Both the position numbers and the translations under genes were made by a program. Of a stretch of DNA of 64,000 nucleotides, positions 17,951 through 49,328 are shown piece by piece. Position 1 is the stretch's first letter. Every line of letters begins with the position of its first letter. The DNA is from Syntrophorhabdaceae bacterium. Lineage in GTDB: Bacteria; Desulfobacterota; Syntrophorhabdia; Syntrophorhabdales; Syntrophorhabdaceae. Location of the stretch: positions 128,001 through 192,000 of the forward strand of contig CAXXUO010000004.1 in the NCBI GenBank assembly GCA_963666485.2. Direction: 5' to 3'. The notes under the pieces are model-generated. The model saw nothing but the letters and a program-made list of their open reading frames with translations, had not been told where the DNA came from and searched no databases.

Positions 17951-18045
17951 AAGAACGGCGTACGGCTAACGGCGGACGGGAAAAACTAAAATGCGAAAGG
18001 TAAACGGCGTAAGGCTGACGGCTGACGGCGTACGGGAAAGGCGGT
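17951..18045. repeat. Degenerate heptamer arrays (ACGGCTA/ACGGCGT family), starting AAGAACGGCGTACGGCTAACGGC
   Basis: First 23 nt are identical to 18790-18812. Confidence 0.75.
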
Positions 18046-18170: not shown

Positions 18171-18788
18171 ATGAATCGTGGAAAGCCCTTATACATTGCT
18201 CTCATAACACTGCTTTTCCTCGTGAGCATCCTGACGGCAGGGTTCTGTGCGTCGGGTGTTTTGCGCGAAGATACCCAGTCCGAAAAGACTGAAAAGGCGC
18301 TCATCATCGAGAAGACCGTATCGTATCTCAAGGAACGTAAACCGGGGATCCCCGAGGAACGCGTCAAGATCATAGCGAGCAGCGTCTACGAAGAGTCAAA
18401 GAAGTACGATCTTGACTACCGGCTTGTTCTTGCCATTATGAAGGTCGAAAGCAACTACAAGACAGAAGCGGTATCGAGAACCGGCCGTGGATTGATGCAG
18501 ATAAACCCGAGATCGGCCAAGGCCCTTGCCCGGCAGTCAGGCGTCGAGATCAAGGGTGCAAAATGTCTTCATGAACCGGAAAAAAATATCAAGCTCGGCG
18601 TCAGCTACCTCTCAAGATTGCACAACATGTTCGACAACATAGTGTCTGCACTGCACGCGTATAACGCCGGTCCCGGCAAGGTCCAGAAACCGGAGAACGA
18701 GCAGCAGGCGAAGACCACCTCATTTACTCGCAAGGTCATGAGCGAATATCAGCGGATAGCGGAAGTATTGCCGGATCCGGAAGAGTAA
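18171..18788 (+). CDS. Lytic transglycosylase (SLT domain), N-terminally anchored
   Basis: LAIMKVESNY, GLMQI, NIKLGVSYL and ALHAYNAGPG; ATG 18171 preferred because the track's TTG start lies in a TTGACA box. Confidence 0.85.
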   Translation: MNRGKPLYIALITLLFLVSILTAGFCASGVLREDTQSEKTEKALIIEKTVSYLKERKPGIPEERVKIIASSVYEESKKYDLDYRLVLAIMKVESNYKTEAVSRTGRGLMQINPRSAKALARQSGVEIKGAKCLHEPEKNIKLGVSYLSRLHNMFDNIVSALHAYNAGPGKVQKPENEQQAKTTSFTRKVMSEYQRIAEVLPDPEE

Positions 18789-18793
18789 AAAGA

Positions 18794-18825
18794 ACGGCGT
18801 ACGGCTAACGGCTAACGGCTAACGG
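18794..18825. repeat. Left arm: heptamer array ACGGCGT-(ACGGCTA)3-ACGG
   Basis: 18795-18818 is the exact reverse complement of 19265-19288. Confidence 0.9.
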
Positions 18826-18881
18826 AAAAAATCCCAGTAAATTAATTCGGAAAACAATTCTGACAATTAAGGGATAGGTCT

Positions 18882-19271
18882 GTGTCAAAGGGGGGATTTA
18901 GAAATCTTAAGGTCTGGCAGCGAAGCAAAGATCTGGCGGTGAGGATATATAGCGTAACAGGTGATGGGAAATTCGAAAAAGATTTCGGTTTGAGAGACCA
19001 ACTGAGGCGGGCCAGCGTATCCATTCCCAGCAATATAGCTGAAGGTGACGAAAGAAATACTGACCGCGAAGCCGTCCGCCATCTCTACATTGCAAAAGGA
19101 TCTGCCGCCGAGTTACTGACCCAACTGATAATAGCCCACGAAATTCGATATTTGGACACGAATTTATTTAAAGATCTCGAAGATGATTGCCTGGCAATTT
19201 CCAGCATGCTTTCAAAATTAATCGCCTCCCGCTCCAAAACTTTCAGAACCGATGAATGTCTTTCCCGTTAG
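18882..19271 (+). CDS. Four-helix-bundle protein (23S rRNA IVP / Avd-like family)
   Basis: FRNLKVWQRS, FGLRDQLRRASVSIPSNIAEG and LYIAKGSAAELLTQL; GTG start after GGGATAGG. Confidence 0.92.
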   Translation: MSKGGFRNLKVWQRSKDLAVRIYSVTGDGKFEKDFGLRDQLRRASVSIPSNIAEGDERNTDREAVRHLYIAKGSAAELLTQLIIAHEIRYLDTNLFKDLEDDCLAISSMLSKLIASRSKTFRTDECLSR

Positions 19272-19288
19272 CCGTTAGCCGTACGCCG
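19265..19288. repeat. Right arm: CCGTTAG-CCGTTAG-CCGTACG-CCG; supplies the TAG stop of the four-helix-bundle gene
   Basis: Perfect 24-bp inverted repeat with 18795-18818. Confidence 0.9.
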
Positions 19289-19289
19289 C

Positions 19290-19955
19290 TTACCATTTGT
19301 ACCTATCTTCCATAAACGAATAATACATATACCCAAACCGGTTATACCAATCTTTCTCACCGTAATATTTGGCCTCACACTGGTCGATCTCCTGCAGCAC
19401 GGCTTTCAGTTTATCGGAGAGTTCCTGGTGTTTGTTGCGGTATGCCTTTTCGAAATTCTTGAATGACGCCTCTATCTTGCGCCTTTCCGCCTGCCAGCCA
19501 AGACCTGCCACCCCATGCACGCCCGATACGCTGTCCCCGAACGAAAGGGAACTCTTTGTGAAATCTTCGGTGGCTATCTTGAGTGCCCGGAGCTTTTCGA
19601 AGTTTACTCTCAGCCTGTACAGCTTGTCATATGCGCCTTTATAACAATCCTTGCAGCCGTCCTTCTTCAACTCGTCACAGCTTGTCGGGACCTGGGGCAT
19701 CCCCGGGGGGTTGTAATTCGGGTCCGCCTGCTTGTCGAGGTCGGAAAGAGGTTTGAAACTGTCGAAAAGATTGACGGCGCCTTTCGATATATCCTGTGCC
19801 TGTTTTGACGAGTCATATGCCTTGCCTAAGGTGTCCATACCCTTCCAGAGGTCCTGAATGGGCAATTCGGAAGGGCCGGCAAGGGCACATAACGGTAAAA
19901 CCAGCAATACAGATACAAAAGAAACGACAGTATTTTTTATCATTATCTTTTTCAT
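19290..19955 (-). CDS. Hypothetical exported helical protein with four mature-region Cys
   Basis: Signal-peptide-like N terminus; SCDE..GCKDCY..QCE; start abuts the upstream gene's stop. Confidence 0.7.
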   Translation of the reverse strand: MKKIMIKNTVVSFVSVLLVLPLCALAGPSELPIQDLWKGMDTLGKAYDSSKQAQDISKGAVNLFDSFKPLSDLDKQADPNYNPPGMPQVPTSCDELKKDGCKDCYKGAYDKLYRLRVNFEKLRALKIATEDFTKSSLSFGDSVSGVHGVAGLGWQAERRKIEASFKNFEKAYRNKHQELSDKLKAVLQEIDQCEAKYYGEKDWYNRFGYMYYSFMEDRYKW

Positions 19956-20569: not shown

Positions 20570-20722
20570 GGAGCAACTCCTTTAGACATTATTGAAGTTG
20601 AGTTTTGAAATTTATATCCCGCGGGGGAGGAAGTGTCAACAGGGATGCGTTGCTTTATGGTGAGAACTATATGATGTATGACGTACATAGTCAATATCAT
20701 TGAACATAAAGGATAAAAGACA

Positions 20723-20749
20723 CTGGATTCCGGCTTTCGCCGGAATGAC
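20723..20749. repeat. REP-like palindrome CTGGATTCCGGC-TTTC-GCCGGAATGAC
   Basis: Family member, 26 bp left of the IS110 left junction. Confidence 0.85.
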
Positions 20750-20811
20750 GGGTGGTTGGTTGGAAAAGAAAAACCTTGTATGATACTCCCCGTGGAATAT
20801 CACGAACAATC

Positions 20812-20975
20812 CATGATAGAAAAGAGAAAAAGGTTGCCGGTGTGGCAGGCCGTAAAAACCAGGGGATGATATCCCGTATCCAAGCTCGGGCCGCCACACC
20901 TTCTCCTTACAAACCCGGACAGTTGCAGGGGACTCGTACCAGGAGATCCCGCATTGCACAAGGAAGGGACACGGG
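20812..20975 (+). ncRNA. Putative IS110 bridge RNA (target- and donor-binding loops); ends approximate
   Basis: Stem GGTGTGGC 20839-46/GCCACACC 20893-900 encloses AAAAACC, a GGGAT/ATCCC hairpin and ATCCAAG; a second loop has ACAGTTGC, GGGA-CTC..GAG-TCCC and ACAAG; these segments match the element's own junction. Confidence 0.7.
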
Positions 20976-20991
20976 AAAAAGGGGTGATATC

Positions 20992-21171
20992 ATGGACGAC
21001 GTCTTCATCGGGATCGACATATCGAAAGAGCATTGTGACCTCGCGGTCATACCGGGCGGCACGCAGAAGAGGTTTACAAACGACGAGGAGGGCCACGAGG
21101 CGATCCTTGCCTTCGTACTTCCTCTCAACCCTTCCCGCATCGTCATCGAGGCGTCGGGAGGATACGAGATG
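20992..21171 (+). pseudogene. IS110 recombinase fragment (first 60 aa)
   Basis: MDDVFIGIDISKEHCDLAV...RIVIEASGGYE matches GIDxSK and EATGGYE of the DEDD_Tnp_IS110 domain; then runs into unrelated repeat sequence and stops at 21231. Confidence 0.85.
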
Positions 21172-21188
21172 GGAGCAGGGAAAAATTT

Positions 21189-21401
21189 GGGGGACGTCCT
21201 TAAGAAAGTAAGAAACTCCTCAAACAACTAAACGGACCGCCCTGTCGTTATTATCCCCGGACCGGGTGATTTTAAGTTACTTACTTTCTTAAGGACGTCC
21301 CCTTTGCCTTTATAAGTTACTTACTTTCTTAAGGACGTCCCCTTTGCCTCGGACCGGGTAATTCTAAGTTACTTACTTTCTTAAGGACGTCCCCCTTGCC
21401 T
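21189..21401. repeat. GGGGACGTCCTTAAGAAAGTAAG element: one copy on + (21189-21212) and three inverted copies (about 36-bp units at 21274, 21314, 21366)
   Basis: aagttacttactttcttaaggacgtcccc(t/c)ttgcct x3; the reverse complement matches 21190-21212. Confidence 0.85.
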
Positions 21402-21476
21402 TTACGGCTTCCGCCGGAATGACGAGGGTGTGGTTGGATTCCGAATTCCGAGACTGTATCCCAATTCAAAAAGGTC

Positions 21477-21597
21477 GTCATTCCGGCGCTTGACGCCGGA
21501 ATCTAAGGTTTTTCTTTTAGGTCTTTCCATAAAAATGGAACCGGGACAAACTAACAAAAATCAAACCTTGGATCCCGGTGTCAAGCACCGGGATGAC
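21477..21597. repeat. Inverted doublet of REP-like palindromes (21477-21505 and 21569-21597)
   Basis: gtcattccggcgcttgacgccggaatcta ... tggatcccggtgtcaagcaccgggatgac. Confidence 0.8.
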
Positions 21598-21739
21598 GAA
21601 GAAGGCTTATTCGGGCGGGTGTAGACTAACGGCTTACCGCGAGCGGTTTGCGGTGTACGACGAACGAGTGGGTGAGAAATTGTGACACAGCCTTCGCCGA
21701 AGTGCCAGGTAAGGGTAAGTCGTTTCCGTTCGTCCCCAA

Positions 21740-21780
21740 CCGCTCGCCGTTAGCCGTTAGCCGTACGCCGTTAGCCGTTA
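21740..21780. repeat. Heptamer array CCGTTAG family x6, overlapping the glcD stop
   Basis: ccgctcg ccgttag ccgttag ccgtacg ccgttag ccgtta. Confidence 0.85.
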
Positions 21781-49164: not shown

Positions 49165-49179
49165 GACAGGGCCACAGAA

Positions 49180-49323
49180 GCCTTTAGCCTTTAGCCTTTA
49201 GCCTTTAGCCTTTAGCCGTTAGCCTTTAGCCTTTAGCCTTTAGCCGTTAGCCGTTAGCCGTTAGCCGTTAGCCTTTAGCCTTTAGCCTTTAGCCGTTAGC
49301 CTTTAGCCTTTAGCCGTACGCCG
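49180..49323. repeat. 20-unit heptamer tandem array GCC(T/G)TTA ending GCCGTAC-GCCG
   Basis: Counted directly: 13 GCCTTTA, 6 GCCGTTA and 1 GCCGTAC; adjoins the rpoH stop. Confidence 0.95.
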
Positions 49324-49328
49324 GTCTT

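Follow-up and report, generated by a model that had tools for sequence, protein, structure and literature searches.

A four-helix-bundle gene inside a heptamer hairpin of a Syntrophorhabdaceae genome, and differing arm families at orthologous gene junctions

The locus described here raises the question of how a small gene enclosed by an inverted repeat came to lie between two convergent host genes, and whether it moves as a unit, is processed as RNA or is kept in some other way. It lies in a 64,000-nt stretch of a Syntrophorhabdaceae genome (hereafter the window, to whose positions the coordinates refer), for which a first-pass annotation had proposed a mobile or RNA-processing cassette. The features needed to follow the argument are these:

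17955-18035, plus strand: two gene-less left-type arms of the cassette's heptamer family, upstream of the SLT gene
18171-18788, plus strand: upstream host gene encoding an SLT lytic transglycosylase; flank, outside the cassette
18794-18825, plus strand: left arm, one ACGGCGT and then ACGGCTA units, with perfect pairing of 18795-18818 to the right arm
18826-18881, plus strand: A-rich leader of 56 nt inside the stem, with Shine-Dalgarno-like AAGGGA at 18869-18874
18882-19271, plus strand: four-helix-bundle gene (23S_rRNA_IVP / S23p family, Avd fold), 129 aa, GTG start, TAG stop
19265-19288, minus strand: right arm, exact reverse complement of 18795-18818, supplying the TAG stop of the ORF
19290-19955, minus strand: convergent host gene without a Pfam family; flank
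20775-21231: IS110 remnant, a truncated left end
21747-21778, minus strand: right-type arm of the cassette's heptamer family, at the stop of a FAD-oxidase gene

The left arm began 5 nt past the transglycosylase stop (18788) and the right arm terminated 1 nt before the stop of the convergent gene (19290). The exactness of the inverted repeat and the provision of the stop codon by its right arm had both been recognised in the first-pass annotation and were borne out, as was the left heptamer arm, although this proved one ACGGCTA unit longer than annotated. When folded as RNA, the arms closed a perfect 24-bp stem (-50.7 kcal/mol; z = -2.62; 0/100 shuffles as stable). No sigma-70 promoter-like site was found in the leader, and a scan of 18700-19400 detected neither promoter- nor terminator-like sites. 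Nothing in Rfam matched over the cassette; weak sub-threshold matches at 21460-21611 corresponded to a REP-type palindrome and were discarded. The gene had also been called AT-richer than its neighbours, a difference that was real but modest, since its G+C content was 45.6% in comparison to 51.5% for the transglycosylase gene, 48.3% for the convergent gene and 52.9% for the window, with third-position values of 46% versus 65% and 61% in the two neighbours. Across the window, ACGGCTAACGG with at most one mismatch occurred 27 times (1.0 expected), and a long right-type array of ~20 heptamer units of the cassette's family was located at 49179-49324.

The encoded protein matched PF05635 with 125.4 bits (cut-off 33.8) and TIGR02436 with 123.2 bits (cut-off 24), and was basic (pI 9.0). 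For structural comparison we used an alignment-based model (pLDDT 93), a single-sequence prediction having given pLDDT 43. Foldseek matched this model to Xcc0516 (2GSC; E 1e-6, TM 0.82, rmsd 1.4 Å), to the fold of BT_0352 and, more distantly, to the Avd protein of diversity-generating retroelements (DGRs; 4DWL, TM 0.71, 14% identity), in agreement with the kinship to Avd that had been annotated. By analogy with the solved homologues 2GSC and 2RLD, which contain five chains each, the protein likely forms a homopentamer. The ORF was under purifying selection (dN/dS = 0.13 relative to its orthologue in the related genome G007), its dS was no higher than that of the SLT gene, and the two orthologous proteins were 80% identical, similar to their neighbours. 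Exactly two PF05635-family genes were present in the genome (3.77 Mb, 99% complete): that of the window, bracketed by GG-type arms, and a paralogue whose arms are GGTTCAA. A paralogue lacking such flanks had been named in advance as evidence against the cassette; instead, the second gene was likewise bracketed by heptamer arms.

Two side observations concern other members of the family. In the genus, many family genes (L002, L003, L007, L009, L010, L012-L017, L028-L030, L249 and L265) had the conserved word AAGTAATA(T/C) upstream, within the left arm; it stood 7 nt before the ATG in several loci and had no exact copy at the window's gene. The word may be a binding site or, in a leaderless promoter, the -10 box. 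Locus L263 (G014:C103) matched the family weakly, had a 30-nt segment directly repeated on its flanks, and was followed by a frame that presumably resembles a DGR template region, so that it is possibly a true Avd.

The arms of the cassette belonged to a genome-wide population of heptamer repeats. Period-7 arrays numbered 507, and no other period between 4 and 12 gave more than 24. A lower threshold yielded 612 arrays, which formed 145 short inverted pairs identified without an assumed orientation; in all 145, each unit class was exclusively a left or exclusively a right arm. The two main groups among these pairs, GTTC-type (104) and GG-type (40), match the two four-helix genes. Using family patterns drawn from the short pairs, neighbouring arms were found in left-right order 190 times and in right-left order never (~190 hairpins), and left-right neighbours were of one family in 180/190 cases versus 76 expected; pairs in reversed order were, by eye, host genes lying between two adjacent hairpins. 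Arms had a median length of 28 nt, equal to four units. A left-type arm occurred no more than 19 nt past the stop of 297 genes and a right-type arm at the same distance in seven, and 19/612 arrays lay in gene bodies. Partner arms shared unit variants more often than shuffled ones in family A (0.44 vs 0.23; 0/2000 shuffles) and in the window's family (0.37 vs 0.25; 3/2000 shuffles), while in a third arm family, B2, neither partner matching nor genome-specific drift was found. B2 hairpins between tandem genes displayed a strand asymmetry of their own, the stop-proximal arm favouring A (GGCGATA, GGCAATA) and the distal arm G (GGCGATG; 51 vs 12 mismatches).

The loops between the arms were unrelated. 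Of 127 gene-less loops, 80 matched no other loop and none matched either cassette interior, and the largest cluster of loops was held together by nested REPs and arm remnants. Among 169 inverted pairs with loops shorter than 1200 nt, the only ones filled by a recognisable gene (by eye) were those carrying the two four-helix genes. CGTC-type REP palindromes (GTCATCCCG...CGGGATGACG and variants) were often nested in heptamer hairpin loops and also occurred in the window at 20718-20752 and 21405-21600. We considered whether the hairpins are carriers of terminators and rejected this, as terminator-like loops were no commoner inside arms (13/188) than in arm-free convergent gaps (11/118). Nor could a GxxExxY nuclease be counted as a second cargo. 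The only such gene (PF13366; L188, G000:C1:1409219-1409569) lay in another inverted repeat, which is not built of heptamers and abounds in GCAGAG words, and similar gene-less arms were present in G006, G008 and G011; this is possibly a parallel gene-plus-arms system.

The distribution of arrays over intergenic gaps bears on a first alternative. Arrays occupied 125/274 convergent, 206/1184 tandem and 39/389 divergent gaps, as judged from a custom hexamer-based gene caller that missed the window's four-helix gene itself. This strong preference for convergent gaps would be expected if receptive junctions (3' ends, terminators, REP palindromes) were colonised and cleared by host processes alone, the four-helix gene being a passenger of unrelated function that survives best in hairpins. 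The nested arms (26 left-left, 20 right-right) favour such an account too. We nevertheless consider it unlikely in light of the comparisons across relatives and phyla given below.

A second alternative is a non-autonomous transposon (MITE- or REPIN-like), with the arms as terminal repeats, the gene-less hairpins derived by deletion, and movement by a transposase supplied in trans. The genome does contain candidate partners, namely four intact IS110 copies, and the annotated absence of an adjacent transposase requires one correction, in that the truncated IS110 left end begins ~1.5 kb away (from near 20775); beside this remnant lay three near-identical ~40-bp copies (TAAGTTACTTACTTTCTTAAGG...) at 21273-21400. 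The four intact copies were identical, and each interrupted a REP-type palindrome with GATGACG at its end, always at one point; three also had a heptamer right arm nearby. We rejected IS110 as a partner because its copies share this separate REP-type target rather than the heptamer arms. No match to PF01797 (the Y1 HUH transposase of RAYTs) or RVT_1 (reverse transcriptase) was found in the 99%-complete genome, and the unrelated loops described above are not what deletion derivatives of the cassettes would leave.

The transposon account further predicts that sites should be found filled and empty, and they were. In G007, the cassette was present after the SLT gene with arms of the same family that differed in variants and length, whereas in G011, G012 and G015 the SLT and convergent genes were directly adjacent, so the empty orthologous sites sought by the first-pass annotation do exist. 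In the outgroup G003, 10-bp arms of the cassette's family surrounded ~170 bp without a gene at the SLT site, an arrangement that the passenger account accommodates well. The element that follows the SLT gene directly abutted, in G007 and G003, the orthologue of the FAD-oxidase gene, and the two gene-less arms at 17955-18035 were missing from the orthologous gap in G011 and G007. As a separate observation, G003 (100% complete) possessed only a broken family gene (L266, G003:C17), yet held 38 GTTC-pattern matches.

The host tree, built from two host proteins (14 rows), was (G003,(G007,(G000,G011))), where G000 is the present genome and its grouping with G011 was supported at 98/96. The simplest reading is that the cassette has been inherited since the split from G007 and was lost in the sister genome G011. 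At the empty site of G011, the TAG was followed by CCGTT, which equals one right-arm unit and follows only 5/4517 TAGs outside arrays in the G011 sample; as a single case, this fits a deletion through 3-nt microhomology. No target duplication was detected, either next to the arms or by comparison with the empty G011 site, although an old one may have decayed because the relatives are only ~80-85% identical. The cassette is therefore one that has been gained and lost over species divergence and not a recent jumper, given its synteny in G007, its dN/dS of 0.13, the lack of a target duplication and the loss in G011. The suggestion that it is a currently mobile unit did not survive these comparisons, and vertical inheritance, which had been proposed as a sign against it, was found within the three-genome clade. 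Together with the retention of host terminator-like loops under differing arms (below), we regard transposition of the cassette and the hairpins as unlikely.

We further compared the arms at orthologous junctions between the present genome and G011, using 565 kb of ~2.6 Mb (a sample partly picked from array-holding contigs). Across 419 syntenic junctions, arms occurred in both genomes at 34, only in the present genome at 13, only in G011 at 3 and in neither at 369; several of the one-sided junctions carried degenerate arms by eye. Site sharing was far above chance in every gene orientation (Fisher test, P = 2e-12, 1e-3 and 7e-7). At 11 of the 34 shared junctions the arm family nevertheless differed, with two matching arms in both genomes at nine of the 11 (by eye). 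The family was kept at the other 23, versus 10.7 expected, and replacement is therefore partial. Divergent gaps are the rarely occupied class, yet three of the six shared divergent sites had switched family, which does not sit easily with receptive junctions alone.

At one junction (G000:C4:7919), a single terminator-like loop was kept in four genomes under three arm types: the present genome had GGTTCAA, G011 GGCGATA/GGCTATA, G007 an AAGGCGT-like type and G003 one short left arm of GTTC type. A terminator-like loop at C9:162579 was similarly common to the present genome and G007 under different arms. The dominant unit followed the genome (GGTTCAA here, CGTTCTA in G011). Likeness between orthologous arms was 0.052 in family A, versus 0.062 between non-orthologous arms and 0.16-0.19 within genomes (8 sites); in the window's family the corresponding values were 0.13, 0.13 and 0.23-0.26 (6 sites). 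In two of three families, arms at orthologous sites thus resembled each other no more than arms elsewhere, and the orthologous loop ranked first at 3/17 sites. The family switches and genome-specific units fit paired renewal of the arms in place and fit a transposing unit poorly. With a synonymous divergence of ~1 among these relatives, they could also have arisen if receptive sites lost their hairpins and were colonised anew, or if arms drifted under selection.

The occurrence of arms around family genes was then assessed across other phyla, where 77/80 loci were scorable. At an inverted-repeat score of at least 14 across the gene, 28/77 loci passed and 49/77 fell below the threshold, compared to 2/276 shifted controls passing; a period-7 run was found on at least one side in 41/77 loci, versus 6/276 controls per side, with almost nothing at other periods. 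Among relatives, 11/23 scored loci passed (a further 7/30 being incomplete or unmatched), and further loci had degenerate arms by eye. The ORF-in-stem layout outside rRNA, proposed from the window alone, is thus general, since it applies to both paralogues of this genome and to many homologues in other phyla. In many phyla, and in array-poor genomes too, arms were more frequent at the gene than at nearby positions, which argues against the gene being a passenger. The neighbours were host genes, and the operon junctions were diverse (dprA-topA, hisF-T2SSE and pepP-efp among them), a spread that would suit a transposon. Against this, no transposase, integrase or reverse transcriptase was detected among the 120/155 neighbour ORFs scanned; a viral scan returned three loci.

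In a quick tree of 113 proteins (5/118 rows left out), the clade of the window protein (15 rows, SH-aLRT 90) spanned Verrucomicrobiota, Nitrospirota and Bacteroidota among others, and 14/14 labelled rows had GGC/GGT-core arms. The paralogue's clade (9 rows, support 97) had GTTC-like arms wherever arms could be seen, and AGCT arms prevailed in a 49-row clade drawn from several other phyla. That the arm core tracks the protein clade is not expected of a passenger and suggests recognition of the arms by the protein; co-inheritance fits as well. The tree does not prove co-evolution, because GGC/GGT cores also occur outside the window protein's clade and kin share labels. In G011, many GG-type arms coexisted with a family gene only of the other clade, and in G015, 121 GTTC-pattern matches coexisted with a family gene only of the window's clade, both assemblies being fragmented and the G011 contigs breaking at arrays. 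One protein therefore does not map strictly to one arm family, a point in favour of the passenger account. Outside the genus, four arrays were found in 211 kb from four gene-bearing genomes versus two in 418 kb from seven genomes without the gene; in these small samples, gene carriers had no clear excess of arrays, and possession of the gene does not imply many hairpins.

A third alternative places the function at the RNA level. The cassette would be an intervening sequence of an mRNA, in which a read-through transcript folds the stem and RNase III releases a ~470-nt ORF-bearing RNA, the hairpins being selected RNA-processing signals and the protein acting on such RNAs. The stability and perfection of the stem, the presence of an RNase III gene in the genome and the co-orientation of the upstream neighbour in 72/77 loci of the broad set are all in keeping with this. 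There are also precedents in the heptamer-bearing intervening sequence of Coxiella (PMC4990558) and the hmw 5'-UTR hairpin of Haemophilus influenzae (PMC12721329), both cut by RNase III. At hairpins between tandem genes, arm mismatches were G-U-compatible on the transcribed strand in 41 cases and on the other strand only in 80 (17 vs 34 elements). This asymmetry is opposite to that expected from selection for an mRNA stem, though one family contributes nearly all of it and replication strand is a confounder. Processing alone also leaves the family switches unexplained. We therefore give this account a low probability, while noting that it is compatible with the one we prefer.

Our preferred explanation, which we put forward tentatively and with slightly less than even confidence, is that the cassette is a gene-bearing member of a heptamer-hairpin family, whose protein is likely a pentamer binding its own arm type and whose arms are likely renewed in place rather than transposed. 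The layout, the single polarity of the arms, their position after stop codons, the protein fold, the inheritance of the cassette at its site with a single loss, and the differences in arm family at the same junction in relatives are direct observations. Starting from these, the basic S23p/Avd-fold pentamer would recognise its own heptamer arm type, sequence-specific binding being likely in view of the arm cores that track protein clades. Both arms of a hairpin would be renewed together in place by copying from the arm pool of the genome, most likely through host repair or recombination (ectopic gene conversion or template switching on an extruded hairpin, plus slippage of units). We infer copying by host enzymes because neither a reverse transcriptase nor an HUH transposase was found. 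By marking or protecting cognate hairpins, the protein may favour their spread and upkeep, and its gene would persist inside one of its own target sites, reaching new junctions only rarely and at the scale of species divergence.

A bolder extension, which we hold to be doubtful, is that S23p/IVP proteins confer specificity on an undescribed system that has no transposase or reverse transcriptase of its own and writes and overwrites paired arms at gene 3' ends by means of host enzymes. Clade-specific cores and rival families overwriting each other would then be its signature, rRNA intervening sequences would be its insertions, and DGRs would have recruited the pentamer as Avd. A link of this kind would join the large S23p family, which has solved structures and no assigned function, with the surplus of 7-base repeats between bacterial genes, and if true it hints at the origin of Avd and of rRNA intervening sequences. 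Paired replacement of arms round a retained host loop, if true, would mean that repeats can spread in an uncommon way, unlike that of MITEs or REPINs. The two paralogues and two arm types of this genome predict reciprocal binding specificity.

Several known systems resemble the cassette in part. ORF-bearing 23S intervening sequences encoding S23p are described from Coxiella burnetii and Leptospira (PMC4990558). In Coxiella the S23p ORF lies in a 28-bp stem and is reported as decaying, and the intervening sequence bears tandem GACAGAT heptamers at its 5' end and is cut by RNase III (PMC4990558). The window's cassette shares with these the PF05635 protein and an ORF in the loop of a terminal stem (24 bp here), but lies between two convergent protein genes and not inside a 23S rRNA gene. 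In contrast to the Coxiella ORF as reported there, its ORF is under purifying selection and is accompanied by ~190 gene-less sister hairpins. RNase III also cuts the heptamer hairpin in the H. influenzae hmw 5'-UTR and is needed for change in its repeat number (PMC12721329).

The arms themselves belong with the bacterial intergenic heptamer repeats of the Xanthomonas GGGAATC or STRR type. Such repeats include GGGAATC in Xanthomonas and GGGGA(C/T)T in Nostoc (PMC4692102), with 70 and 75 gene-less inverted pairs in two Xanthomonas species (PMC4692102), and TAACTGA in Beggiatoaceae (PMC4679880). Those described there likewise lie between genes in arrays some four units long, frequently paired in inverted orientation, no more than 50 bp from a stop and on the coding strand. 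In the present genome, unlike in those accounts, several unit families coexist and replace each other at orthologous sites. Neither 'S23' nor 'intervening' occurs in the main texts of PMC4692102 and PMC4679880. A full-text search over articles without their supplements, including few subscription papers, likewise returned no paper linking the S23p family with extragenic heptamer hairpins, or describing paired arm replacement. The rRNA form (Coxiella) and the gene-less pairs (Xanthomonas) are thus already published, and the link between them was found in no paper.

The Avd of DGRs is described as a pentamer that forms an RNA-binding barrel, and is likened to S23 proteins (bioRxiv 10.1101/2023.10.23.563531). 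The window's protein resembles it in fold and in being basic, whereas avd has a reverse transcriptase beside it and none was found adjacent to the cassette, in the genome or among the scanned neighbours. Finally, CGTC-type REPs and RAYTs are covered in PMC3733652. REP and REPIN systems with a RAYT offer a parallel to a gene between short inverted repeats that recur gene-less after stops throughout a genome. Here, by contrast, the flanked gene encodes no HUH transposase, the arms are tandem heptamers and not single palindromes, and the loops are unrelated; MITEs differ from it in turn by their target-site duplications and the interior sequence shared among their copies. In its layout, the cassette works like an ORF-bearing intervening sequence or a REP-flanked gene, and it is a member of neither.
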